DNA of 64,000 bases from Longimicrobiales bacterium (GTDB lineage Bacteria > Gemmatimonadota > Gemmatimonadetes > Longimicrobiales > Gaopeijiaceae): the NCBI GenBank assembly GCA_965249725.1, contig OZ252251.1, forward strand, positions 704,001-768,000, given 5' to 3'. The position numbers and the translations under genes are program-made. Shown in pieces: positions 25,043 to 48,656 of this stretch. Below the pieces are notes generated by a model. That model saw only the letters and a list, made by a program, of their open reading frames with translations. It was not told the origin of the DNA and searched no databases. Positions within the stretch are counted from its first letter, which is position 1. Every line of letters begins with the position of its first letter.

Positions 25043-26065
25043 TCAGGCGGCAGCGCGAACCCGATGGATCTCCTTCTTCGTGGTCAGCGCCCAGACCATC
25101 CGCGCCGTCCTGTTGGCGAGCACCACCGCGACCAGCATCTTCGGCTTGCGTGCCAGCATCCTGGCCAGCCACGGATCCGTGATCTCGCCGCGCCGGATCG
25201 CGTTTTGGACGACCGCCATGGCTCCCGTGATCAAGAGCCGCCGGAGATCGCGCTGGCCCATCTTCGATATCCTGCCCAGCCTCGGCTTGCCGCCGGTGGT
25301 GTGCTGCCGCGGCACAAGGCCGAGCCAGGCCGAGAAGTCGCGCCCGCGCCGGAAGCTCTCCATCGGCGGTGCGAAGGCCTGCAGTGCCATCGCGGTGATC
25401 GGTCCGATTCCGGGGATTGTCATCAGCCGCGCCGTCTCTTCGCGCTCCCGTGTGCTCGCCCGGAGCTTCCTGTCGAGTCCATCGATCTTCTCATCGAGCT
25501 CGTCGATCGGCCCGAGCAGCAGCCATCCCAGCTCGACGACCGCCTCCGGCAGGCCGGCGTCCCCGTCTTCCAGCACCCGGGCCAGTTGCCCGATCCGGGC
25601 CCTGCCCTGCGGAGCAACAACTCCGAACTCGGCGAGGTGACCCCGAAGGGCATTGATCGTCTGTGTGCGCTGGCGCACCAGCAGGTCACGCGTGCGAAAG
25701 AGCATCCCCTGACCCTGCTGCGCTTCGGTCTTGACCGCCACGAAGCGCATGGTCGGACGCTGTGCGGCTTCCGAGATCGCCTCCGCGTCCGCCGTGTCGT
25801 TCTTCTGCCTCTTGACGAAGGGCTTCACGTAGATCGGTGGAACCAGCCTCACCTCGTGACCGAGCGCCACGATCTCCCGGCCCCAGTAATGGGCGCTGGC
25901 GCACGCCTCCATCGCCACCGTGCAAGGCGGCTGCGAGGCGAGAAAACTCAGCAGCTTCCCGCGGCTCAGCTTCTTGCGGTACGCTACCGACCCGTCCGCC
26001 TTCGCCCCGTGTACCTGAAAGCTGCGCTTTGCCAGATCGATCCCGATGATGCTAACCTCCTCCAT
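25043..26065 (-). CDS. IS110-family recombinase/transposase
   Basis: GIDLAK, MEAC, KNDTADAEAI (DEDD); IPGIGPITA, WLGLVP. Confidence 0.95.
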   Translation of the reverse strand: MEEVSIIGIDLAKRSFQVHGAKADGSVAYRKKLSRGKLLSFLASQPPCTVAMEACASAHYWGREIVALGHEVRLVPPIYVKPFVKRQKNDTADAEAISEAAQRPTMRFVAVKTEAQQGQGMLFRTRDLLVRQRTQTINALRGHLAEFGVVAPQGRARIGQLARVLEDGDAGLPEAVVELGWLLLGPIDELDEKIDGLDRKLRASTREREETARLMTIPGIGPITAMALQAFAPPMESFRRGRDFSAWLGLVPRQHTTGGKPRLGRISKMGQRDLRRLLITGAMAVVQNAIRRGEITDPWLARMLARKPKMLVAVVLANRTARMVWALTTKKEIHRVRAAA

Positions 26066-28280: not shown

Positions 28281-28841
28281 ATGGGGAAGCTGTTGCTCCT
28301 GGTCGCCGCCGTGCTCGCGGCGGCCGACGCAAGTGCGCAGACCACTTGGCGGGGATTGGTGGTTGCACCAGAGCACCGTTGTTCACCGTACCGGTCTGGC
28401 GACTACAGCTATCCGCAGTCCGTCCAGGCCTCGATCGTCCGAGAGTTGGGCGGCATCTACTCGCCGTACACCGGAGAGCGGTTCGCGTCAATGGGTCAGA
28501 CGGATATCGAGCACACGGTGGCTCGTAGCGAAGCCCATGATTCCGGTCTTTGCGCGGCGAGCCGCGAAACACGCCGGGCGTTCGCTCGGGACTTGCTGAA
28601 CCTCACGCTGGCCAGTCCGGGACTGAACCGGGGAGCCAAGGGTGCGGATGATGCCGCCGAATGGATGCCTCAGCGTAACCGCTGCTGGTTTGCAGACCGA
28701 GTTGTGGCGGTCCGTCGGCGGTGGGGGCTGACCATTGACGCCCGAGAGGCAAACGCCCTGGAGGCCGTACTGGCCGGCTGCACGACTACGGCTCTGGAGG
28801 CTGCCGGGGGCGGCGCCTTCGCGCCCATTGGTCATGCCTAG
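28281..28841 (+). CDS. Secreted HNH nuclease-like protein (DUF1524-type), C-terminus probably clipped by IS
   Basis: Signal peptide; DIEHTVARSEAHDSG, NLTLA...NR.KG..DAAEW. Confidence 0.75.
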   Translation: MGKLLLLVAAVLAAADASAQTTWRGLVVAPEHRCSPYRSGDYSYPQSVQASIVRELGGIYSPYTGERFASMGQTDIEHTVARSEAHDSGLCAASRETRRAFARDLLNLTLASPGLNRGAKGADDAAEWMPQRNRCWFADRVVAVRRRWGLTIDAREANALEAVLAGCTTTALEAAGGGAFAPIGHA

Positions 28842-29321
28842 CTGAGCGGGTTTTGGCGGAGGGATTTTAGCAAAGTTTGATACTTGTCGGCATGTCGATA
28901 GTTGTATCGCCATTCGGTTTCCTTGAGGTGCAAATGGAAGGTGTGTCTGAGGAGCCCTTTGAACTTCGCCAGCCGGACCTTGGCCAGGCCCCAGAAGCCC
29001 TCGATGCAGTTGATATGAACGGTGCCCTTGGTGAACTCGTCGCGGGCATGATCGACGCGGAAGTGGCCATAGCCTAGATCAACCAGGCCGTTGTAGCCGC
29101 GCCAGCCATCGGAGTTGATGACGGTGTGCGGGTCCACCCGGCCACGGATGATGCCCTGCAGGGTTGGCTTCGAGCAGTCCGGGACGATCTCGGTATACAC
29201 TTGGCCCTGCCACTCGAAGATGCCCAAGACGACCGTCTTGCCGTAAGCGCCGCGCCCACGCCGGCCCTTGACCCGGCGCGCTCCGAAGAAGCTCTCGTCG
29301 ACATCGACGACCCCGAACGGG
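28830..29321 (-). mobile_element. IS1595-family (IS1016-like) transposase, 5-prime truncated
   Basis: VDESFFG, RGRGAYGK, SDGWRGY, HINCIEGFW, LKETEWRYN. Confidence 0.85.
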
Positions 29322-29324
29322 AAG

Positions 29325-29727
29325 CTCTACAACGAGATAAGACCGCATGAGGCGTTAGGCGGTAACGTGCCCGCCGACCACTACCGACCCTCACCTCGAC
29401 CCTTCCCCAATCAACTCGAGCCGGTCACGTATCCAGGCCACTTCGAGACCCGGCTCGTCAGCTCGAACGGTGGCATCCGATGGTACGGTGACCGCGTCCC
29501 TGTCGGTCGACTCTTCGCCGGACATGAAGTCGGACTCGAAGAGATTGACCACGGCCTCTTTGAGGTCTACTTCGGTCCCATCTGGCTAGGACGCTTTGTT
29601 GAACCCAAACGCCTCATCTTCGACTCCCTCGGACGAGGGCAAAGACGAACTGGAGGTACTTGCAAAGGACGCAGAACTGTTACCTAGGTCTCTTTACTTA
29701 ACTGTCACCCAGGTCTTTTACCGCTCA
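29325..29727 (+). mobile_element. IS481-family 3-prime remnant with terminal repeats
   Basis: YNEIRPHEALG..PADHY; end carries ACTGTTACCTAGGTC / ACTGTCACCCAGGTC repeats. Confidence 0.75.
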
Positions 29728-36535: not shown

Positions 36536-36601
36536 TTTTCGGGGAAATAGGTAAATATATTAACAGCTAAGCCTGCTGACCTCTCAGAGGTCAAGTAGGC
36601 T

Positions 36602-36614
36602 TAAGTTGTTGATA
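36602..36614 (-). promoter_or_regulatory. IHF binding site
   Basis: TATCAACAACTTA matches WATCAANNNNTTR exactly; lies between the candidate UAS and the promoter. Confidence 0.65.
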
Positions 36615-36642: not shown

Positions 36643-36658
36643 TGGCACCGAGATTGCA
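36643..36658 (+). promoter_or_regulatory. sigma54 (-24/-12) promoter
   Basis: TGGCAC-CGAGA-TTGCA consensus. Confidence 0.85.
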
Positions 36659-36715: not shown

Positions 36716-37333
36716 ATGTTTAGGAAGAGAGACGTTTGGCGCATACTGCCTTTCGCCGTGCTGTTCGGTGTTTGGTCCTGCACCGACACACCGACGGACG
36801 AAGGCCCCGCCGCGCCCGCTGAGGGCTTGGCATCTGCGTTCTTCGAAACCGCTCCAGCACCCGGCTTCGCGGCCCACCAGTGGCGTGACTCGCGAGAGAG
36901 CCAGATGACGGTGACGCGCACCATCGGCGCGGAGGGGGGCGTGATGGAGTTCCGGAAGCTCGGAGCCTCGATCGTCTTCCCAGAGGGCGCCCTCTCGGAG
37001 GCAACAACGATCGAGGCGAAGGCGATCGCCGGCCCGGTCGTGGCCCTCGAGTTCAGTCCGCATGGCATCGACTTTGGCGTGCCCGTGCAGATTCGCATCA
37101 ATGCACGCATGCTGGCGCCCGGATGGGGCGGGAGCCTCGAGAGCGGCGACGAGCTGGGTGAGCACGACGGCGAGGTCCTGCGTCGGCACCTCTCGAAGCT
37201 CATAGGCGTCTACTATGTGGGCGGTCACACATCAGGCGCTGCCCCTCTGGAGACTCTGCCGATGTTCTTCGAGGACGGAGATGTCGTGCTCGAAGTGAGG
37301 CACTTCTGCGGCTACGCAGTGGCGTCGGGTTAG
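36716..37333 (+). CDS. Lipoprotein with ZU5/GAIN-like domain ending HF-CGYAVASG
   Basis: VWSC lipobox; IGAEGG, IVFPEGAL, FSPHGIDF..PV ZU5-like motifs; terminal HFC. Confidence 0.7.
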   Translation: MFRKRDVWRILPFAVLFGVWSCTDTPTDEGPAAPAEGLASAFFETAPAPGFAAHQWRDSRESQMTVTRTIGAEGGVMEFRKLGASIVFPEGALSEATTIEAKAIAGPVVALEFSPHGIDFGVPVQIRINARMLAPGWGGSLESGDELGEHDGEVLRRHLSKLIGVYYVGGHTSGAAPLETLPMFFEDGDVVLEVRHFCGYAVASG

Positions 37334-37389: not shown

Positions 37390-38451
37390 ATGAACCGCGC
37401 CATTGACGTGACAAGTGAATCTCCGGAAGAGAGACAGGTCAGGGCGGGCGATCTCGCCCGTGCGGGCCGAGAAGCGGAGACCCAGGGAGCCCTAGGTGAC
37501 TCCCTGGAGAAGCTGACCGCGGCGTTGGACCTTCTTCCCGATAACGAACCGTCGCCGCTCCGAGCCGACATCCTCCGGTGGCTCGGCACGACGCTTCGCG
37601 AACTCGGGCAAACGACCGATGCCGAGTCCCGCTACGAAGAGAGCAGTGCCCTCTCGCGAGACATCGCATACGGAACCGGCGAAGCCCACGCCCTGAACTG
37701 CCTCGCGATCATTGCCCAACGGCGGGGCGACATGAATGCCGCCCAGTCCAGGTATCGACAGGCCGCGCGCCAGGCAAGCGACTCGGGAGATCACCGACTC
37801 GCCGGAATGGTCGAGCAAAACCTCGGCGTCCTCGCGAACATCCAAGGAGATCTGGACGGTGCCCTCGTGCGCTACCGGGCCAGCCTCAGGGCGTTCGAAG
37901 AGGGCGATTTCGAGGAAGGCATGTCGTGGGTGCTCAACAATCTGGGCATGCTCCACACCGACCTCGGCAAGTACGACGACGCTGAGGAGCACTTTACCCG
38001 CGGCCTCGATATCGCCCGCCGTCGGAAGGACCTTCATACTCAGGCTCTTCTGGAATCGAACCTCGCCGAGGTCTACATCCGACTCGAGCAATGGGAAGCG
38101 GCCGAGGCCTACGTAGAAAGGGCGCTCGGCATCGCTGAAGAGAGGGGCGACCCACTCCGGAAGGCCGACGCTCTCAAGTTCCTCGGCATGATCCAGCGGG
38201 CCCAGGGTCACCTCTCCCTCGCAGACGAGTCTCTTTCGAGCGCCAATCGTCTCGCAGAGGAGAGTGAAGACGCCCTGCTGGCCGCAGAGGTGTGCCGGGA
38301 ATTGGGGGAGACCCGTGCCCAGATGGGACAATACCCTGATGCCACCGAGCTCCTGGAGCGCGCCGTACGGCTCTTCAGAGAAATGAACGCGTCGCTCGAC
38401 GCCACCAAGGCACAAGAGCGATTGGATCGGATCCATGCGGACTCCGAATAG
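37390..38451 (+). CDS. Stand-alone TPR protein (MalT/RRNPP-like helical repeats)
   Basis: About 40-aa repeats: ALNCLA, QNLG, LNNLG, SNLA. Confidence 0.85.
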   Translation: MNRAIDVTSESPEERQVRAGDLARAGREAETQGALGDSLEKLTAALDLLPDNEPSPLRADILRWLGTTLRELGQTTDAESRYEESSALSRDIAYGTGEAHALNCLAIIAQRRGDMNAAQSRYRQAARQASDSGDHRLAGMVEQNLGVLANIQGDLDGALVRYRASLRAFEEGDFEEGMSWVLNNLGMLHTDLGKYDDAEEHFTRGLDIARRRKDLHTQALLESNLAEVYIRLEQWEAAEAYVERALGIAEERGDPLRKADALKFLGMIQRAQGHLSLADESLSSANRLAEESEDALLAAEVCRELGETRAQMGQYPDATELLERAVRLFREMNASLDATKAQERLDRIHADSE

Positions 38452-38475: not shown

Positions 38476-39534
38476 GTGAGCTATCAACTCGCCAGCAGAG
38501 AAGTAGAAGAGACTGTCCCGACCGGCGACCGCACCGCCACCGATATCGGCTTTCAGGCGATCATCGGGGAGGGCGCCTCGCTCAAGAAGGCGATCGATTT
38601 CGCCAAGAGGGTGGCGACCCGAAAACTGACGACGGTCCTCATTGTGGGAGACACGGGCACCGGCAAAGGCCTGTTCGCCCGCGGCATCCACTACGCCAGC
38701 CAGGATGCCCAGGAGCCTTTCGTCACGGTGAACTGCGCGGCCATCCCCGGGAACCTCCTCGAGTCCGAGCTGTTCGGACACGAACGCGGGGCGTTCACGG
38801 ATGCCCGGTCGCGGAAGCTGGGTCTCCTAGAATTGGCAGGAGCAGGTACGCTCTTCCTCGACGAGGTCAGTGAACTGCCTCCCAACCTTCAGCCCAAGCT
38901 GCTGCGGGCACTCGAGGAGAGGCGCTTCCGGAGAATCGGAGGCACGGAGGAGATCGCGGCCAAGTGCCGCCTGCTCGCTGCCGCGAACAGTTCGTTCGAG
39001 GATGCGTTGAGCGAAGGGCGTTTCCGCGAAGACCTGTTCTACCGACTCAACGTCCTCCGCATCAACGTCCCTCCCCTGCGGGAGCGCGGAAAGGACCCGG
39101 AGTTGCTGGCGCGCCACTTCATGGCCGAGATCGCTCGCGAGATGGGCATTGCGCCGAAGGCCCTCCGCAAGGACGCCGTCGAGGTCCTCAATCGCCACGA
39201 CTGGCCAGGCAATGTCCGAGAGCTGAAGAACGTCATCCAACGGGCCATCGTGCTGACCGACGGACCGGCCGTGCGTGCCGAGCACCTCAGCATCTTCGGT
39301 CGGGCGAGAGTGGACGGGGATGCCCCGGAGGACCGGGACCGTTCGATCCACATTCCACCCACGGGTCTGCGCCTGTCTGAGATCGAAGCTCAAGCGCTAC
39401 GCATCACCCTCGACATTACCGGGGGAAACCGAAGCGCCGCTGCCCGCATTCTCGGCCTCTCTCGGCCCACGGTCCATCGTAAGATCCGGGATTACGGTCT
39501 CGACGATCGCAAAAGTCTCGACGCCACCGCGTGA
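38476..39534 (+). CDS. sigma54 enhancer-binding protein without an N-terminal sensory domain
   Basis: GDTGTGK, ESELFGHERGAFTDA, LFLDE, FREDLFYRL, WPGNVREL, Fis-type HTH. Confidence 0.92.
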   Translation: MSYQLASREVEETVPTGDRTATDIGFQAIIGEGASLKKAIDFAKRVATRKLTTVLIVGDTGTGKGLFARGIHYASQDAQEPFVTVNCAAIPGNLLESELFGHERGAFTDARSRKLGLLELAGAGTLFLDEVSELPPNLQPKLLRALEERRFRRIGGTEEIAAKCRLLAAANSSFEDALSEGRFREDLFYRLNVLRINVPPLRERGKDPELLARHFMAEIAREMGIAPKALRKDAVEVLNRHDWPGNVRELKNVIQRAIVLTDGPAVRAEHLSIFGRARVDGDAPEDRDRSIHIPPTGLRLSEIEAQALRITLDITGGNRSAAARILGLSRPTVHRKIRDYGLDDRKSLDATA

Positions 39535-39538
39535 CATC

Positions 39539-41260
39539 GTGGAATCGACCACCGCCCTGGGAATCCCGGAGGGTGCCCGAAGCCTGATCGCAGAGGCCAG
39601 GGCCGCGGAGCGGCGGGCGCGCCGAAGCCGCGCCCGCGCGTGTTACGAAGAGGCCCTACGTAGCCTGAATGGCTGGGAACACGGTGCCCTGGCCAGCGCC
39701 ATCCTCCGGTGGATCGCCCGCACCCATTACGAAAGCGGACACCTCGCCGCTGCGATGGACTGCTTCGAGGCGGCCCTGGCCGTAGCCGACGCCCACGACG
39801 ACATGCTGGGCAAGGCGCACGCCCTGAACGGCAAGGGCATCGTCGAGCAGCTCCGCGGCAACCTCGAGACGGCTGCCGCCCACTTCGCGTGGAGCCTGGA
39901 TCGGGCCTCGCGCGCCGGTGACGCCGCCCTACCCGCGATGATCCATCAGAACCTGGGTGTAATCGCCAACATCCAGGGCGACTTCGCGGAGGCCCTCGTC
40001 CAGTACCGCTCCAGCAAAGACGCGTACGACCGGCTGGGTGAAGACGATCGAGTGGGTCCTCTTCTCAACAACATCGGCCGTCTGCATACGGACCGTGGAG
40101 AGTGGAGCGAGGCCGAGGCGGCGCTCGAAGAGGCGAGCCGTCGCTGTGTCGAATCAGGCGACGTGGACCATCACGTCCACGCTCAGGTGAACCTCGCGCG
40201 CCTCTGGATCGCCCGAGGGGACCTAGAGCGAGCCCGGGCCTCCTGCGATACCGCGTGCAACGTCTCGCGCGATGTCGCGGAGGGTCGATGGTCCGGAGAG
40301 ATCTTGAAGCACTACGGCACCATCTACCGGCTGACCAAGCGACCGGAACTCGCGCTCGACTCTCTGCGACAGGCGCGACTCCTCGCAGATGACCAGAGGA
40401 ACACGCTCTTGGCCGCCGAGATCGCACGAGAATTCGCCGACGTCTACGCCGATCAGGGGCGGAATCGGGACACACTGAGGGCGCTGAACGAGTGTCTACG
40501 ACTCTTCTCGGAGTTCCAAGCCAAGCACAACCTGGCCGAGGTGAGGGACCGGATCTCTCGTCTCGAGTATCGCTTCCTGGACGTGGTCTGCTCCTGGGGA
40601 GAGTCCATCGAATCGAAGGACCGCTACACACAGGGTCACTGTGAACGAGTGGCGGACCTGGCCTGCGCCCTGGCGACCGCGGCCGGCCTGGACAAGGACG
40701 TTCTGACCTGGTTCCGCATGGGCGCGCTTCTCCACGACCTCGGCAAGATCGCCGTGCCCTCGTCCATTCTGAACAAGCCGGGCGCCCTTACGGCGGAGGA
40801 GTGGGTCATCATGAAGCGGCATCCGGAAGCCGGGGTCGAGCTCCTCCAAGGCATCGAGTTCCCATGGGACATCCGACCCATGCTGCGCCACCACCACGAG
40901 CGCTGGGACGGATCTGGATATCCGCACGGCCTGATGGGGGCCGACATCCCCCTTTCAGCTCGGATCCTGTGCCTGGCCGACGTGTTCGACGCTCTCACGA
41001 CAGACCGCAGCTACCGGAGTGGACTGCCCCCCGACCAAGCGATGTCGGTCATGCGGAACGAGGCAGGCTCCACATTCGACCCGCACCTGTTCGGCGTGTT
41101 CGAGGGCTTGTCTCAGGACTCCCCTCGGCGGTGGGCGACACGCTCGGCCCGCGATCGCCGCCGCAAGCCGGTGGGCACGCCACACCTCATACCGGTGGCG
41201 GGGGCGCTCAGCTCGCCCATCCCTCGCCGAACCCTGCCGCCGCAGGAAATCTGGGCCTAG
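39539..41260 (+). CDS. TPR + HD-GYP cyclic-dinucleotide phosphodiesterase
   Basis: TPR array, then DRYTQGH, LLHDLGK, HHHERWDGSGYP, ADVFDALTTDRSYR. Confidence 0.9.
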   Translation: MESTTALGIPEGARSLIAEARAAERRARRSRARACYEEALRSLNGWEHGALASAILRWIARTHYESGHLAAAMDCFEAALAVADAHDDMLGKAHALNGKGIVEQLRGNLETAAAHFAWSLDRASRAGDAALPAMIHQNLGVIANIQGDFAEALVQYRSSKDAYDRLGEDDRVGPLLNNIGRLHTDRGEWSEAEAALEEASRRCVESGDVDHHVHAQVNLARLWIARGDLERARASCDTACNVSRDVAEGRWSGEILKHYGTIYRLTKRPELALDSLRQARLLADDQRNTLLAAEIAREFADVYADQGRNRDTLRALNECLRLFSEFQAKHNLAEVRDRISRLEYRFLDVVCSWGESIESKDRYTQGHCERVADLACALATAAGLDKDVLTWFRMGALLHDLGKIAVPSSILNKPGALTAEEWVIMKRHPEAGVELLQGIEFPWDIRPMLRHHHERWDGSGYPHGLMGADIPLSARILCLADVFDALTTDRSYRSGLPPDQAMSVMRNEAGSTFDPHLFGVFEGLSQDSPRRWATRSARDRRRKPVGTPHLIPVAGALSSPIPRRTLPPQEIWA

Positions 41261-41296: not shown

Positions 41297-43132
41297 CTAC
41301 CGATACCCTGCCGCCTGAAGGGTGAAGAGTTCGGCGTAACGGCCCTCCAGCGCGAGGAGCTCCTCGTGGGTCCCTTCCTCCTTCACGCTTCCGTGCTCGA
41401 GCACGACGATTCGATCGGCCATGCGCACCGTTGAGAAGCGGTGGGAAATCAGCACGGCCATTCTTCCGCGGGTCAACTCGGCGAACCGCTCGAAGACGTG
41501 GTATTCGGCCTTCGCGTCCAGGGCTGCGGTGGGCTCGTCGAGGATGAGTACTTGGGCATCACGCATGTAGGCGCGGGCGAGTCCGACCTTTTGCCACTCC
41601 CCGCCAGAGAGGTTGGCCCCACCGTCGAACCGTCGGCCGAGCATATGTTCGAAACCCTCTTCGAGCTCGGACACGACCGTGTCTGCCAGGCTGTCTTCGG
41701 CCGCTCGGGCGATACGCGACTGATCCCCCAGGGCCTCGATCTGACCTACCGCGATGTTCTCCCGCATGATCAGATCGTAGCGGACGAAGTCCTGGAAGAT
41801 GACCCCGATCGCCCGGCGCAACTCGCTCACGTCGTACTCCTTGAGGTCCACCCCGTCCAGGAGAATGCGTCCTTCATCGGGGTCGTATAGCCGAGCCAGG
41901 AGCTTCACGAGCGTGGTCTTCCCTGCACCGTTCTCGCCGACGAAGGCAACTCGATCGTCGGCCCCCAATCGGAGGGAGACGTTGCGAATGGCCCACCGGT
42001 CGCTGTCGGGATACCGGAAGCCGACGTTCTCGAACACGATCCCGTCCTTGATGGGGCGAGGTATCGGCACCGGATCGGCCGGGCACGGAGCCGCAGGCGT
42101 CATCTCCAAGAAGGTGAAGAGATCGCGGAGGAACAGGCTCTGCTCGTAGACGTCGGCGGAGCGCAACAGGATGCCACTGATCAGGGCCCTGCTACGCTGG
42201 CAAGACCCCACCAGGAATGTCAGGTCTCCTAGCGAGAGAACCCCGCGGACGGTATCGACGATGATGAAGACGCTGGCGGCGTAGTACCCCAGCGTCGACA
42301 CCGCAGTCAGTCCGCCCGAAGTGGCCGCGCGCCTGGTCGAGAGTGCCTTGTTCGCTTCGTAGAACTTGTCCGCCAGACGTTCGTACTTCCGGGTGAAGTA
42401 GTCCGACAGACCGAAGAGCTTCACTTCCTTCGCCGTCACGTTGCTCGTGGCCACGTACCGCAGGTAGTCCAGTTCCCTGCGCTCGGGGGTCCACTTGAAC
42501 AGCAGCGAGTACGACAGACCGGCGAAGTGGGTCTCGCCGATGAACGACGGCAGTACCGCCACGACGAGCAGAAGCAGGAGCCAGACATTGAACGCCACGA
42601 GCACGACGAGAAGAGAGGCCAGGGTCAGGGCGCTTTGGCCGATGCCCAGAAGGAGTGCCACCAGCCCGATTCTCCCCACGGTCTGTCGGCGGGCCCTCTC
42701 GAGCGAATCGTAGAACTGAGGATCCTCGAAGTTCTCCAGATCGAGCGTCGCGGCGTGCTCCATGATGCGCACGGAGAGGCGGTTGCCGAACAGGTCGGCC
42801 AAGAGACTCTCCAGAAGGTTGGAGGCTCTTTGGAAGAGGTCGGACACGAGGGCGACCGCCAGCTCCAGCGCCACCAGACGCATAATGCCCGTCCAGTCCG
42901 GCTGCGCGGCCCCGATGTTCGCCACCACCGCATCGATGATGAGCTTCCCGATCCACAGCTGCACGACCGGTGAGAACGCGAGCACCAGCCGTAGCGATAC
43001 GATCGCTGTGGCATAGTAGGGCTGGGCGCGCCAGACCATGCGCAGAAAGCGTGGCACAAGGCGGAGCGCCACCAAGCGCTCCCTGAAGGGTGGAAGATCG
43101 ACGGAACGACGGCGCCCGAGACCCGGAGGCAC
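41297..43132 (-). CDS. ABC transporter, fused permease/ATPase
   Basis: GENGAGKTT, LSGGEWQ, ILDEPT. Confidence 0.92.
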   Translation of the reverse strand: MPPGLGRRRSVDLPPFRERLVALRLVPRFLRMVWRAQPYYATAIVSLRLVLAFSPVVQLWIGKLIIDAVVANIGAAQPDWTGIMRLVALELAVALVSDLFQRASNLLESLLADLFGNRLSVRIMEHAATLDLENFEDPQFYDSLERARRQTVGRIGLVALLLGIGQSALTLASLLVVLVAFNVWLLLLLVVAVLPSFIGETHFAGLSYSLLFKWTPERRELDYLRYVATSNVTAKEVKLFGLSDYFTRKYERLADKFYEANKALSTRRAATSGGLTAVSTLGYYAASVFIIVDTVRGVLSLGDLTFLVGSCQRSRALISGILLRSADVYEQSLFLRDLFTFLEMTPAAPCPADPVPIPRPIKDGIVFENVGFRYPDSDRWAIRNVSLRLGADDRVAFVGENGAGKTTLVKLLARLYDPDEGRILLDGVDLKEYDVSELRRAIGVIFQDFVRYDLIMRENIAVGQIEALGDQSRIARAAEDSLADTVVSELEEGFEHMLGRRFDGGANLSGGEWQKVGLARAYMRDAQVLILDEPTAALDAKAEYHVFERFAELTRGRMAVLISHRFSTVRMADRIVVLEHGSVKEEGTHEELLALEGRYAELFTLQAAGYR

Positions 43133-43161
43133 CGCTTACACGCTCCGCCTTCGGTCCCTGA

Positions 43162-43665
43162 TCAACCCTCGTCGTCCTCCGGGGCCCGGTTGCCGAATTC
43201 CCGGTCCAGCATGAGAAGAGCGGCCTGGTCGTCACCAGCCATCTTCACCTGATCGCTAGCGGCTGAAGCGCTATCCTCCTCTTCGACCTGCTCGGCGATG
43301 AACCACTGCAGCTCCTGCTGCGCCGCCCAGTCGCCCTCCTCGCCCGAGAGTTCGAAGAGGCGGTGGATGAGAGCCGTCACCTTCTGCTCATGGGCCAAGA
43401 CGCTCTCGAATATCTCCGCCGGAGGTCCGAACTGCGTCTGGGGTCCGTCGATGGCCTGAAGCTCGACCCGGCCGCCGCGACGCAGCACGTGATCGTACAG
43501 CCGCAGAGCGTGCTCCAACTCCTCCTGAGCCTGAAGCTTCATCCAGTGGGCGAAACCGGGAAGGTTCTCGGCCTCGAAGTGGGCGGATATGGACAGGTAA
43601 AGATATCCGGAAAAGAGCTCGTCTTTGATCTGCTCGTTGAATGCGGCCTGCACCTTGTCGTTCAT
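43162..43665 (-). CDS. ftnA: Non-heme ferritin
   Basis: ELFSGYLY, QAQEELEH, WFIAEQVEEE ferroxidase motifs. Confidence 0.9.
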   Translation of the reverse strand: MNDKVQAAFNEQIKDELFSGYLYLSISAHFEAENLPGFAHWMKLQAQEELEHALRLYDHVLRRGGRVELQAIDGPQTQFGPPAEIFESVLAHEQKVTALIHRLFELSGEEGDWAAQQELQWFIAEQVEEEDSASAASDQVKMAGDDQAALLMLDREFGNRAPEDDEG

Positions 43666-44438: not shown

Positions 44439-45329
44439 GTGCGCGCAATGGTATCTCTCATCAGTGCGGCCACACTCACGCTTATCATCGGTTCGCCCAC
44501 ACCCCCATCGGCGTACCCATCGGCGTACCCATCGGCGCACCCATCGGCGCAACAGACCTCGCCACGCGCCTCGTTCCTCTCGTCTGAAGCCGTTGCGACT
44601 GCGCCGGGGACCGCTCGTCCCATCGGGTCGGCCGACCCATCCGTACAGGCCGAGGGCATCCCGCGCGAGTTCTACTTCTCGCGCGTCGCCTATACGGGTT
44701 ACAGCCGAGGGTTCTACGGACGCGGGCCGTCCTGGGCGACGGACTTTCCCAAGGCCGATCAGATCTTCCTTTCGTTCATCGACCGGCTGCTTTCCAACCT
44801 GGACGCGTACGAGAGGGAGCACCCGGTCCAGTTGAACGATCCCGAGATACGCCGTTTCCCTTACCTCTACGCGCTCGAAGTCGGTCGTATGGCTCTCACC
44901 GACCCCGAGATCCAAGGGCTGCGGAGTTACCTGATGGCTGGCGGCTTCCTGGTCATCGACGACTTCTGGGGGTCACGCGAGTGGCAGAATTTCGAGTACC
45001 AGATGCAGCTCGTACTGCCCGGCCACTCCATCGCCGACCTGCCGCTCGACCACCCGATCTTCACCGCGTTCTACGAGATCGAAGAGATCATGCAGGTCCC
45101 CAACGTCCGCAATGGCGTGAACGGTTGGCAGACTCACGAGGGCGACGGAATCGTGCCCATGGTCAAGGGGATCCACGATGAGAACGGCCGCCTGATGGTG
45201 GTCATCAACTTCAATACCGATCTGGGCGACGCCTGGGAATGGGCGGACAATCCTTACTATCCCCTCAAGTACTCGACGTATGCCTACGAGATGGGCGTGA
45301 ACATGATCGTGTACGCCATGAGTCACTGA
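44439..45329 (+). CDS. DUF4159 domain secreted protein
   Basis: WATDFP, YLMAGGFLVIDDFW, NTDLGDAWE, MGVN..YAMSH. Confidence 0.85.
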   Translation: MRAMVSLISAATLTLIIGSPTPPSAYPSAYPSAHPSAQQTSPRASFLSSEAVATAPGTARPIGSADPSVQAEGIPREFYFSRVAYTGYSRGFYGRGPSWATDFPKADQIFLSFIDRLLSNLDAYEREHPVQLNDPEIRRFPYLYALEVGRMALTDPEIQGLRSYLMAGGFLVIDDFWGSREWQNFEYQMQLVLPGHSIADLPLDHPIFTAFYEIEEIMQVPNVRNGVNGWQTHEGDGIVPMVKGIHDENGRLMVVINFNTDLGDAWEWADNPYYPLKYSTYAYEMGVNMIVYAMSH

Positions 45330-45351
45330 TCATGCTCCAGGAAACGACCTG

Positions 45352-47640
45352 ATGCAGGGCCTCTTCGAATTCCTGTTCAAGTATCGCCCTCTTCTCTTTC
45401 AGGAGGGCGAGTTCACCTTCGGATCTCCGTGGCCCACCATGGTGGTGCTCGGGCTGGTCGCCGCACTCTCGATTCCGACGGTCCTTACCTACACGGCAGC
45501 AAGGGGTAATACGCAGCCCGTGGATCGGGCGGTCATGGCCACCCTTCGACTCGGGGTGATCGCGCTGCTGGTGTTCATCCTCTTCCAGCCCACACTCGTC
45601 CTCACTTCGGTGGTACCACAGCGGAACTTCGTGGGGATTCTCGTCGACGATTCCCAGAGCATGCAGATTGCATCAGACGATGGGGTGCCTCGAAGTGACT
45701 TCATCCGTCAGACGTTTGGAGCGGAGGGAAGCGAATTGCTCAGCGAACTCAGCGACAAGTTCGCCCTCCGATTCTTCCGATTCAGCAGAGAGACGAGCCG
45801 GATGGAGGACGTGTCGGAGCTGACGTTCGCAGGGACCGGCACTGAGCTCGGTAGCGCGATGGTCCGCGCCCAGGAGGAATTGGCCGGAGTCCCGCTTTCC
45901 GGCTTGGTCGTGATCTCCGACGGCGCGGATAACTCGGGCGAGACCCTCGCGGAGTCATTGTTGCCGCTCCAGGCGGCCAACATACCCGTCTACACGGTCG
46001 GCCTCGGGGAGGAAACGCTCTCGCCAGACGTGCAGGTCAGTCGCGTCGAGGTCCCGCGAACGGTGCTCTTGGGCACGTCGCTGGTCGTCGACGTGATCGT
46101 TTCGCACCGCGGCTTCCCCGGCCAAACCGTCCCCCTCGTGGTTGAGGACGGTGGTATCCTCATGGCCACCGAGGACGTGACGTTCGAGGGAGACGGGGAG
46201 CCGGTCGTGGCACGCATCAGGCTCGAGGTCTCCGAGAGTGGACCGCGCCTGCTCCAGTTCAGAGTGCCGGTTCAGGACGGCGAGAGGGTGGCCCGCAACA
46301 ACGTTCGCGAAGTCCTGATCGATGTCGTCGACGAGGCGGAGAAGGTCCTCTACTTCGAGGGCGAGCCTCGCTGGGAGGTGAAGTTCCTACGTCGCGCCGT
46401 GTCGGGCGACGACAACCTGCAGGTGGTGGTGCTCCAGCGAACCGCCGAGAGCAAATTCCTTCGTCTGGACGTGGACGACGCCGAAGAGTTGGCGGCCGGC
46501 TTCCCGAAGACCCGGGAGGAGTTGTTCCGCTACCGGGCCCTGATCCTCGGTAGTGTCGAGGCTAGTTTCTTCACGCACGACCAGCTCAACATGATCGCGG
46601 ACTTCGTGTCCAAGCGGGGTGGAGGACTCCTCCTTCTCGGAGGCCGCAATTCGTTCCGAGAGGGAGGCTACGTCGGAACACCTGTCGAGGAAGCCCTTCC
46701 CGTGTTCCTGGACGACGAACTGAGCGACGGCCGCCCCTTCTTCTCCGAGCTCGTCGTGAGCCCGACGCGTACCGGGTTGACCCACCCCGCGACACAGCTG
46801 GGAGGTGACGGAGGCGAGGAGGTGAGGGCGCTTTGGGAGTCTCTCCCACCGGTCTCCTCCCTGAACCCCATCACCCGCCTCAAGCCGGGCGCTACCAGCC
46901 TGCTTACAGGTGGGAGTGAGGAAGACCGCACGACACAGGTGGTGCTGGCCTATCACCGCTACGGCCGTGGCAAGGTCATCGTGCTTCCCATCCAGGACTC
47001 GTGGATCTGGCAGATGCACGCAGAGGTGGATCTGGAGGACCAGACCCATGAGACCTTCTGGCGCCAGCTCATCCGTTGGCTGGCTGACGGCGTACCGCAT
47101 CGGGTCGGCGCCCAGGGCGAGCGCGAGGTCGTGGAGCCCGGGCAGTCGGTCGGCATCTCGGCCGAGGTGAACGACTCGGCGTACGTGGAGGTCAACAACG
47201 GCAACATCGTCGCGACGGTCCGGAGCCCCGGTGGGGACTCCCTGAGCGTACCCCTAGACTGGGCGGTCGACCAGGACGGACGCTATGACGCCAACTTCAC
47301 GACGTCGGAGCCGGGCTTGTACGAGATCTCCGTCCAGGCCACGCGCGCGGCCGACACGTTGGGAACGGCCGTCACCTACGTGCACGCGGCCCCGTCCGAC
47401 GACGAGTACTTCGACGCGAGCATGCGCGGCACCACCCTACGGCGCGTGGCCGAAGAGACTGGGGGCCTGTTCTACACGCCCGACGATGTCGCGTCCCTGC
47501 CTGAAGACATCAGCCTGACCGGTGCGGGGGTGACCCTCACGGAGGAGCGGGATCTTTGGGACATGCCGTTCCTCCTGATCCTCCTTCTGAGCCTCATGGC
47601 CGGTGAGTGGGGCTACCGCCGCAAGAGGAGCCTCGTTTGA
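45352..47640 (+). CDS. Membrane protein with vWA and glutamine-amidotransferase-like domains
   Basis: DDSQSM MIDAS, SDG, GGGLLLLGG, YGRGKV, EWGYRR. Confidence 0.8.
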   Translation: MQGLFEFLFKYRPLLFQEGEFTFGSPWPTMVVLGLVAALSIPTVLTYTAARGNTQPVDRAVMATLRLGVIALLVFILFQPTLVLTSVVPQRNFVGILVDDSQSMQIASDDGVPRSDFIRQTFGAEGSELLSELSDKFALRFFRFSRETSRMEDVSELTFAGTGTELGSAMVRAQEELAGVPLSGLVVISDGADNSGETLAESLLPLQAANIPVYTVGLGEETLSPDVQVSRVEVPRTVLLGTSLVVDVIVSHRGFPGQTVPLVVEDGGILMATEDVTFEGDGEPVVARIRLEVSESGPRLLQFRVPVQDGERVARNNVREVLIDVVDEAEKVLYFEGEPRWEVKFLRRAVSGDDNLQVVVLQRTAESKFLRLDVDDAEELAAGFPKTREELFRYRALILGSVEASFFTHDQLNMIADFVSKRGGGLLLLGGRNSFREGGYVGTPVEEALPVFLDDELSDGRPFFSELVVSPTRTGLTHPATQLGGDGGEEVRALWESLPPVSSLNPITRLKPGATSLLTGGSEEDRTTQVVLAYHRYGRGKVIVLPIQDSWIWQMHAEVDLEDQTHETFWRQLIRWLADGVPHRVGAQGEREVVEPGQSVGISAEVNDSAYVEVNNGNIVATVRSPGGDSLSVPLDWAVDQDGRYDANFTTSEPGLYEISVQATRAADTLGTAVTYVHAAPSDDEYFDASMRGTTLRRVAEETGGLFYTPDDVASLPEDISLTGAGVTLTEERDLWDMPFLLILLLSLMAGEWGYRRKRSLV

Positions 47641-48656
47641 CCCTCAAGCGTTTCTGCGTGGCGGCCCTCGTGGCTGGTGTGTCCGTCCCCGGCACCCTAT
47701 CGACGCCGAGCCTTGCTGCGGCGCAGGAGACGCACGTCCTCGTGATCGGCGGGCTCGGCGGTGACGACGCGTATCGAGAGCGCTTCCTCGAGTGGGGTGG
47801 CTCGTTCGTCGACGCCGCCACGGAACGCCTCGGCGTACCCCGTGATCACATCGTATATCTGGGCGAGAAGCCCGAGGCGGATCCTCGGATCACCGACCGC
47901 TCGAGCCGCGACAACGTTGAGCGGGTCTTTGCGGAGATCGCGTCCAAGGCCGCTCCGGGCGATCACGTGTTCATCATGCTGATCGGACACGGCAGCTACA
48001 CCTCGGGCGAATCGCGATTCAACCTGCCCGGACCCGACCTGACCGCAGAGGACTTCGCGCTCATGCTCGACCAGCTGGTCGAGCAGAGGGTCTCCTTCGC
48101 CAATGTGACGAGTGCCAGCGGCGGTTTCGTCACCGCCCTCTCCGGCCCGGGCCGGGCCATCGTAACGGCCACGAAGACCGGCATGGAGCGCAACGAGTCC
48201 GTGTTCGCGGGCTATTTCATCAGCGCGTTCACGGGAGACGGGGCGGACCTCGACAAGAACGGTCGCGTCTCGCTGTCCGAGGCATTCGAGTTCGCACGCA
48301 CGGAGGTCGCTCGAGAGTACGAGAGTGACGGACGGATCATGACCGAGCACGCGCTCCTCGACGACAATGGTGACGGCGAGGGGAGTGAGAGCCTGGAGGA
48401 GGGGCTGGACGGAGTGTTGGCCGGGAAGCTGTTCCTGGGGGTGAGCCCCACGGCGGTGGCGGCCATGTCCACCGATGATCCCGCGCTGAGGGCGCTCTAC
48501 GAGGAAAAGGCCGTCTTGGAGCAACGCATCGAGGAGCTCCGGGCCATCAAGGACCAAATGGACGAGGAGCGCTACGAAACGACGTTCGAAGACCTACTCG
48601 TCGAGCTGGCACTCAAGAATCGTGCGATCCAGGCACGAGAGGGTGCCGGTTCGTGA
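47637..48656 (+). CDS. Secreted caspase/C13-fold-like protein
   Basis: LIGHGS; TSASGGF at the expected Cys position; DLDKNGRVS EF-hand-like loop. Confidence 0.55.
   Translation: MTLKRFCVAALVAGVSVPGTLSTPSLAAAQETHVLVIGGLGGDDAYRERFLEWGGSFVDAATERLGVPRDHIVYLGEKPEADPRITDRSSRDNVERVFAEIASKAAPGDHVFIMLIGHGSYTSGESRFNLPGPDLTAEDFALMLDQLVEQRVSFANVTSASGGFVTALSGPGRAIVTATKTGMERNESVFAGYFISAFTGDGADLDKNGRVSLSEAFEFARTEVAREYESDGRIMTEHALLDDNGDGEGSESLEEGLDGVLAGKLFLGVSPTAVAAMSTDDPALRALYEEKAVLEQRIEELRAIKDQMDEERYETTFEDLLVELALKNRAIQAREGAGS

Follow-up and report, generated by a model that had tools for sequence, protein, structure and literature searches.

The window examined here, a 64,000 nt stretch of genomic DNA from a Gemmatimonadota bacterium to which all coordinates refer, contains a gene unit that is a strong candidate for a peptide-TPR signalling system not described before, in which the precursor would cleave itself. 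The unit itself, which consists of a sigma54-type promoter, a ZU5 lipoprotein, a TPR protein, a sigma54 activator and a TPR-HD-GYP fusion, is real and conserved, and it recurs across the Gemmatimonadota. The lipoprotein is the first gene of the unit and all of its parts lie on one strand:

36643..36658, plus strand: sigma54-type -24/-12 promoter, TGGCAC-N5-TTGCA, 73 nt before the start codon
36716..37333, plus strand: ZU5/GAIN-like lipoprotein, predicted peptide precursor (205 aa; ORF, Pfam, AlphaFold, Foldseek)
36716..36781, plus strand: lipoprotein signal peptide, last residue Cys22 (lipobox-like VWS-C22)
37301..37309, plus strand: His196-Phe197-Cys198, predicted autoproteolysis site with the cut between Phe and Cys (structural register, conservation)
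37307..37330, plus strand: 8-residue tail CGYAVASG, last beta-strand and candidate ligand (model, paralogue comparison, co-variation)
37390..38451, plus strand: stand-alone TPR protein, predicted peptide receptor (353 aa, 17 helices)
38476..39534, plus strand: sigma54 enhancer-binding protein with AAA+ and HTH domains and a GAFTDA motif (domain search)
39539..41260, plus strand: TPR of the same family fused to HD-GYP, predicted c-di-GMP phosphodiesterase (573 aa)

We lean somewhat towards Rap-Phr-like signalling, in which the self-cleaving lipoprotein would be the precursor, its peptide would be imported and the TPR proteins would switch the outputs. The observations on which this reading is built are the fold, the cleavage register, the gene unit, the sigma54 site, the conservation and the co-variation of tail and TPR. 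An initial annotation of the locus had proposed a self-cleaving precursor of a TPR ligand; sequence comparison and modelling support that proposal, in which cleavage, release and binding are predicted steps.

The promoter matches 7 of 8 scored positions of the sigma54 -24/-12 consensus. The site is conserved in the nearest relative, L031. Sites of this type precede 29 of 101 ZU5 genes, with 1.2 expected by shuffling, and the background among the lipoprotein-like ORFs of this genome is 11 of 452. The TPR gene starts 56 nt downstream of the lipoprotein ORF, and its product carries an Asn ladder (N103, N144, N184 and N224) whose residues occupy an equivalent helix position from one repeat to the next and are maintained in at least 90% of 35 sequences. 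The closest solved relatives of this TPR are LGN/Pins and kinesin light chain, structures with peptide partners. The match to RapF was weak (E 1.3e-4) and Rap phi3T held Foldseek rank 42, both far below LGN/Pins. Neither of the two TPR proteins has a signal peptide or a clear transmembrane stretch by hydropathy, in agreement with the earlier description of them as cytoplasmic in appearance, and no importer gene is located within the unit, as had also been noted. The sigma54 activator has about 28 residues ahead of its AAA+ domain and no N-terminal sensor domain, while the HD-GYP domain of the fusion has intact HD and HHERWDGSGYP motifs. Only one such unit is found in this genome, which encodes RpoN and at least three Opp/Dpp-type (SBP_bac_5) peptide-binding proteins elsewhere. 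The sigma54 promoter and the activator, both absent from the initial annotation, suggest a feedback loop.

Other readings of the region were rejected. A near-perfect 55-nt hairpin (36557-36611, -35 kcal/mol) between the cyclophilin gene and the promoter was considered as the site of the activator, but it is not seen in L031 and is possibly a small insertion or a terminator. TTAC/GTAA words, which are repeated in the upstream regions of this locus, L031 and L071, are possible binding sites of the activator. The second ZU5 protein of the genome was discarded as a member of the system; it is a 606-aa multidomain lipoprotein without H-X-S, its last strand reads SFSIYGML and no TPR of this family is located nearby. 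An anti-phage or toxin reading, prompted by the occurrence of ZU5 in polymorphic toxins, was set aside with no toxin or immunity gene in the unit.

A profile of 26 sequences matched 125 of the 251 genomes of the order, multidomain ZU5 proteins included, and yielded 3,243 clusters at 50% identity (E <=1e-10). Linkage was examined from both sides. The ZU5-centred set held 81 loci, namely the window and 80 regions (60 from the 150 matches listed and 20 from another search) chosen for their long flanks with the neighbours unseen, some of them from one genome. A TPR of this family lies within 10 kb in 72 of the 81, with TPR plus HD-GYP present in 46 and a sigma54 activator in 42. The TPR-centred set comprised 70 regions around matches outside the ZU5-centred set; a ZU5-type gene is found within about 3 kb in 55 of these (52 by profile, 3 by eye), one has a small repeat precursor instead, and 14 have no precursor, three of them at contig ends. 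The TPR family is present in 53 of 121 genomes of the phylum. Within one TPR clade all 80 named relatives belong to the Gemmatimonadota, and 77 of these 80 loci carry a ZU5 gene, the other three being incomplete upstream.

The lipoprotein ORF is directly preceded by an RBS-like GGAGGAG and its translation ends in EVRHFCGYAVASG, followed by the stop codon. This codon comes eight residues after the predicted cut site, and the ORF thus has nothing beyond its last strand, as first described. Cys22 is conserved in 13 of 14 homologues, the fourteenth being without its N-terminus, and a lipoprotein-like signal was scored by a rule of our own in 143 of 168 ZU5 family members (L178 left out). The claim of a ZU5/GAIN-like fold was borne out by both profile and model. 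The protein scores 27.6 bits against Pfam ZU5, for which the cut-off is 21. An AlphaFold model built from 14 sequences has a pLDDT of 66 overall, with most of the core at 83-95, and its top Foldseek and VIA-align matches are ZU5 and GAIN domains. The ZU5 domains of ankyrin, ZO-1 and UNC5B were matched at a Foldseek E of 7e-7 and aligned with a Z of 11.8 and an rmsd of 2.6 A over 116 residues; GAIN domains ranked after them (Z 6.7-8.4). According to the model, the lipoprotein has a ZU5/GAIN-B beta-sandwich fold, and on predicted fold and motif its domain belongs to the ZU5/GAIN/MAIN superfamily. NCBIfam contains no family matching the lipoprotein or two of the small precursors described below. 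Among 24 cluster members listed for homologues (eight from the first cluster, one from the last) three have a name, which is 'hypothetical protein' each time.

Structural alignments of the model to NLRP1 (6x6c), ADGRL3, GPR56, GPR110 and GPR97 all stop at model residue 197. The chain residues opposite are 1212 in NLRP1, 854 in ADGRL3, 382 in GPR56, 566 in GPR110 and 249 in GPR97, of which the latter four are presumably the last residues preceding their cut sites. NLRP1 is cut before Ser1213, the nucleophile (PMC3210808). Because the alignments end at 197, opposite NLRP1 1212 and the GAIN cut-site residues, F197/C198 is placed in cleavage register. In the model the HFC turn is followed by the last strand, residues 200-204. 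Conservation was counted over 171 ZU5 domains, from which five duplicate loci and one protein with a long extension had been removed beforehand. The His is conserved in 155 of the 171 and lost in 16. In all 155 the nucleophile position is taken by Ser (153) or by Cys (2, from different families), and Ala or gaps at that position are confined to domains without the His. The proposed conservation of HF[S/C] therefore holds, with His and Ser/Cys kept together in most of the family.

Bacterial MAIN domains are reported to cleave HF/S in vitro, the pieces remaining together (bioRxiv 10.64898/2026.05.12.724683). GAIN sites are listed as L/T/S/C, that is Leu followed by T, S or C (PMC3321182), and Cys is among the nucleophiles given for this autoproteolysis chemistry (PMC3321182, PMC3210808). 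The canonical motif H-X-S/T, as worded in PMC13062082, leaves out Cys, and according to the same source H-X-S is insufficient for cleavage, given that ADGRB2 has HLS and is barely cleaved. With HFC in register and HFS in most of the family, the sequences conform to an H-hydrophobic-S/T(/C) motif. On this analysis the lipoprotein, a Cys variant, probably cuts itself at Phe197/Cys198.

A tail that is a TPR ligand could also be freed by an ordinary protease, either after Arg or through degradation of the domain, with HF/C self-cleavage being dispensable or decaying in this lineage. The nearest relatives (L031, P0010-P0014) have lost HF[S/C] and kept the GYAVASG tail, with a loop or an Arg ahead of it, and the Cys found here is a rare choice (2 of 155), both of which would fit such a course. 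However, five homologues at 64-80% identity retain HFC, the joint retention of His and nucleophile in 155 domains speaks for a working site, and no Arg immediately precedes the tail, Arg195 being located before the His. We regard release by a protease in place of self-cleavage as unlikely, even though Arg precedes the motif in most duplicated tails and in most precursors that have no ZU5 domain.

Those duplicated tails and ZU5-less precursors are informative in their own right. Tail lengths in 103 motif-bearing ORFs are 7-8 residues in 56, 10-33 residues in 45 and long extensions in 2, and some ZU5 tails are duplicated after Arg. Ten long tails have a nearest short-tail TPR at least 45% identical to their own; for six of them the outer second copy is the better match to the tail of that neighbour, as with GYVVATD versus SGYVIATD. 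The first copy matches better in the other four, where the extensions are not repeats, and a free C-terminus is therefore not always needed. Nine loci (L107, L054, L064, L070, L108, L112, L114, L115 and L176, of which L054, L064 and L070 are close relatives of one another) contain small ZU5-less lipoproteins of 64-99 aa that carry tail motifs and adjoin the same TPR family. The small lipoprotein of L107 ends in YALCIE, as do its ZU5 neighbours, and those of L114, L115 and L176 have two motif copies each; duplicated peptide copies also occur in Phr propeptides (PMC11343458). In a FastTree phylogeny, midpoint-rooted and used for grouping only, the TPRs of ZU5-less loci group with ZU5-linked TPRs bearing similar tails. 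A strict scan for small lipoproteins gave 36 candidates within 3 kb, and among the 14 listed 5 were convincing; a loose scan gave mostly noise.

In the Rap-Phr-like scheme that we favour, the lipoprotein would be exported, lipidated and folded, and would then, by analogy with its relatives, cleave itself at Phe197/Cys198 by an N-to-S acyl shift. The CGYAVASG strand may be freed by slow dissociation or through unfolding or degradation of the domain. Release is the weakest step of the scheme, because a cleaved GAIN strand, like that of MAIN domains, stays tightly bound (PMC3321182; bioRxiv 10.64898/2026.05.12.724683), and nothing is attached to CGYAVASG for force to pull on. RRNPPA peptides are imported by Opp/Dpp (PMC9765709), and the freed peptide could likewise enter through a general Opp/Dpp permease. 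It would bind the Asn-lined groove of both neighbouring cytoplasmic TPR proteins. The stand-alone TPR might control the sensorless sigma54 activator in trans in a Rap-like way, and the peptide-bound TPR of the fusion would switch its HD-GYP phosphodiesterase. Positive feedback could arise through the sigma54 promoter of the unit.

Self-cleavage and TPR binding might both be real in a unit that monitors its own envelope or export, with the peptide caged until the domain unfolds or is degraded, or else made in the cytoplasm upon a failure of export. The precursor is lipid-anchored and has no linked importer, the cleavage products of MAIN and GAIN domains remain associated (bioRxiv 10.64898/2026.05.12.724683; PMC3321182), and the C-fragment of the NLRP1/CARD8 ZU5 is freed by functional degradation (PMC11760013), all of which would suit such a monitor. 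The tail is also nearly uniform in a large clade of Gemmatimonadales, where 66 of 83 tails read SRYAVAW or SRYAVAY, and it is therefore a poor fit to a kin-specific code. On the other hand, unstructured repeat-copy precursors have no cage and resemble Phr-type propeptides (cf. PMC11343458), and separate units of one genome or locus bear different tails (L048, L091, L093). In our analysis a role confined to envelope or export monitoring appears improbable.

That the tail behaves as a ligand, beyond its part as a structural strand, is likely from several sequence comparisons, with binding itself being predicted. Conservation of S-x-Y-A alone proves nothing, because a last strand would be conserved anyway. 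More telling are tandem ZU5 paralogues: among 21 pairs from 12 loci, 13 do not differ at any of the six variable tail positions. Tandem paralogues of only 27-56% identity usually have the tail in common, and where core identity of paralogues falls below 0.6 the mean tail identity is 0.86-1.0, as against 0.18-0.65 between loci. Five control strands showed no consistent excess identity in the tandem paralogues. No other ORF of the genome ends in a matching tail motif.

Co-variation of the tail with the TPR groove, suggested earlier as a check, was then found in the family. Over 115 ZU5-TPR pairs (five gappy TPRs left out), the partial rank correlation of tail with TPR given the core is 0.36 and that of tail with core given the TPR is 0.11, so that the tail tracks its TPR over its own core. 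Control strands gave 0.13-0.27 with the TPR and 0.19-0.39 with the core, although one control strand also follows the TPR, with a partial correlation of 0.38 in the TPR-only subset. Because pairs share ancestry, these correlations are not independent tests and their p-values are not to be read as tests. In 110 pairs, with L178 and further gappy TPRs left out, the 15 TPR columns with the strongest link to the tail include 8-9 predicted groove positions, a class that makes up 37 of 303 columns; the control strands gave 0, 1, 1, 2 and 6. Groove positions were assigned from TPR geometry, not from a complex. It is quite unlikely that the tail is a structural last strand only, with the lipoprotein an output of the sigma54 unit and the TPRs sensing something else: S-x-Y-A-hydrophobic does resemble the general last strand of the fold, as in the unlinked multidomain ZU5 protein, kinship inflates the tail-TPR correlations and the predicted binding rests on that co-variation, but such a reading leaves unexplained the ZU5-less lipoproteins with the same tail, the outer-copy matching in duplicated tails, the tail identity of paralogues at 27-45% identity and the groove enrichment.

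In overall design the unit would be of the Rap-Phr kind, and its maturation step has, in our assessment, no counterpart in the literature found. As with Rap-Phr (PMC10075063, PMC9765709, PMC11343458), the gene of an exported precursor lies beside that of a cytoplasmic TPR protein of about 350 aa without a DNA-binding domain, the peptide would be short and C-terminal with copies duplicated in some precursors, and re-import by Opp is predicted. Unlike Rap-Phr, the host is a diderm phylum, the precursor is a 205-aa folded, lipid-anchored and predicted self-cleaving domain, the TPR is nearer to LGN/Pins than to Rap, and the unit would act through a sigma54 activator and an HD-GYP domain. RRNPP propeptides are expected at 10-100 aa (PMC10075063), a size that the 205-aa precursor exceeds and the ZU5-less relatives fit. 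A predicted TPR receptor within the 250-500 aa range is encoded directly beside the precursor gene, as in RRNPP systems, and an export signal is present, of the lipoprotein type by motif, which RRNPP_detector accepts at its 'relaxed' level only. The hosts of RRNPPA systems are described as Bacillota or their mobile elements (PMC9765709), whereas the named TPR relatives here are all Gemmatimonadota.

MAIN domains (bioRxiv 10.64898/2026.05.12.724683) and toxin ZU5 autopeptidases (PMC3482391) share with the lipoprotein a GAIN/ZU5-like sandwich, an HF/S-type site before the last strand and export. Bacterial ZU5 domains are known from polymorphic toxins and large surface proteins (PMC3482391). MAIN proteins have a mean size of 158 kDa and are laid out as signal peptide, adhesion or enzyme cargo, MAIN domain and C-terminal anchor, the cargo being released (bioRxiv 10.64898/2026.05.12.724683); the lipoprotein, by contrast, has an N-terminal anchor and no cargo, and only its strand could leave. 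The main text of the MAIN preprint contains no mention of Gemmatimon, lipoprotein, TPR or ZU5. NLRP1/CARD8 FIIND and PIDD ZU5 (PMC3210808, PMC11760013) have the same fold and cleavage register, and there too a C-fragment is the signal once freed. However, that fragment consists of UPA and CARD or death domains, all cytosolic, while here it would be eight residues long and exported. In adhesion GPCRs the strand after the cut, the Stachel, is likewise the proposed activating ligand (PMC3321182, PMC13062082), but it stays tethered to its own 7TM receptor, whereas a free peptide is proposed here, with separate cytoplasmic receptors across the inner membrane. In the literature searched, which consisted of titles and abstracts with subscription papers mostly outside, no description of this unit was found.

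A more specific 'free Stachel' form of the proposal is possible, though we put it forward tentatively and with some doubt. The self-cut lipoprotein would cage its own last strand and then release it as a diffusible, membrane-crossing ligand, the receptors being phylum-wide TPRs that control sigma54 and c-di-GMP and that also take cage-less Phr-like precursor peptides. If so, bacteria would have a counterpart of adhesion-GPCR activation that works with a soluble agonist, and RRNPP-like signalling would occur in a diderm. More generally, if the Rap-Phr-like reading is true, TPR-peptide signalling, described as a trait of the Bacillota in the literature consulted, would also be widespread in a poorly studied diderm phylum and would feed into sigma54 transcription and c-di-GMP. 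GAIN/ZU5 autoproteolysis would gain a third use besides cargo release and tethered agonism, as the source of a soluble ligand without an outside protease. A minimal domain with an 8-mer would also offer a simple system for studying at the bench when a Stachel-type strand departs after cleavage, which is a question in adhesion-GPCR work.

Several variations in layout were seen among the other loci. L157, L164, L170 and L158 encode proteins of more than 1,350 aa that begin with TPR-HD-GYP, that of L158 being arranged as TPR, HD-GYP, GGDEF, STAND ATPase and TPR. In L157 and L164 the gene comes immediately after Opp/Dpp-like permease genes (Pfam BPD_transp_1 in L164), the only link to peptide import seen. 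The gene run in L054, L064 and L070 is ZU5 lipoprotein, small ZU5-less precursor, GGDEF-STAND-TPR, sigma54 activator and TPR-HD-GYP. In L032, L057-L062, L069, L072, L075, L085, L086 and L184-L194 the layout is a different one, with ZU5 and TPR preceded by a receiver-like sigma54 activator. One clade with this layout has long tails ending in R-G-G-x-x-x-x-G-G-like motifs, and in L185, L190, L191 and L194 an inserted loop replaces HFS while YALADHN-type tails are kept. At L128:4035-4737 a ZU5 gene runs across two reading frames, upstream of a TPR-HD-GYP gene.

A sequence artefact at the tail was considered and rejected, as 5 of 6 sequencing runs give the same tail, although four of these are from one sample, which may be the source of the window. 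The sixth run (X6, from a third study) lacks 6 nt at window position 37325, which code for the final Ser-Gly of the tail, and a single nucleotide at 40461 in the TPR-HD-GYP gene, before the HD domain. The 1-nt loss coincides with a short run of G and is possibly an error. Only two other differences occur in 4.8 kb of the X6 contigs, each position being covered by one contig at a depth of 8-9. X6 could represent a strain in which both signal and output are lost.

Downstream of the unit, an ABC transporter (membrane protein plus ATPase) and a ferritin at 41297-43665 are encoded on the opposite strand, converging on it. They are followed at 44439-48656 by a DUF4159 protein and two large membrane or secreted proteins. 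Elsewhere in the window, at 25043-26065 and 28838-29687, an IS110-like transposase and other transposase pieces were recognized by eye from the translations.
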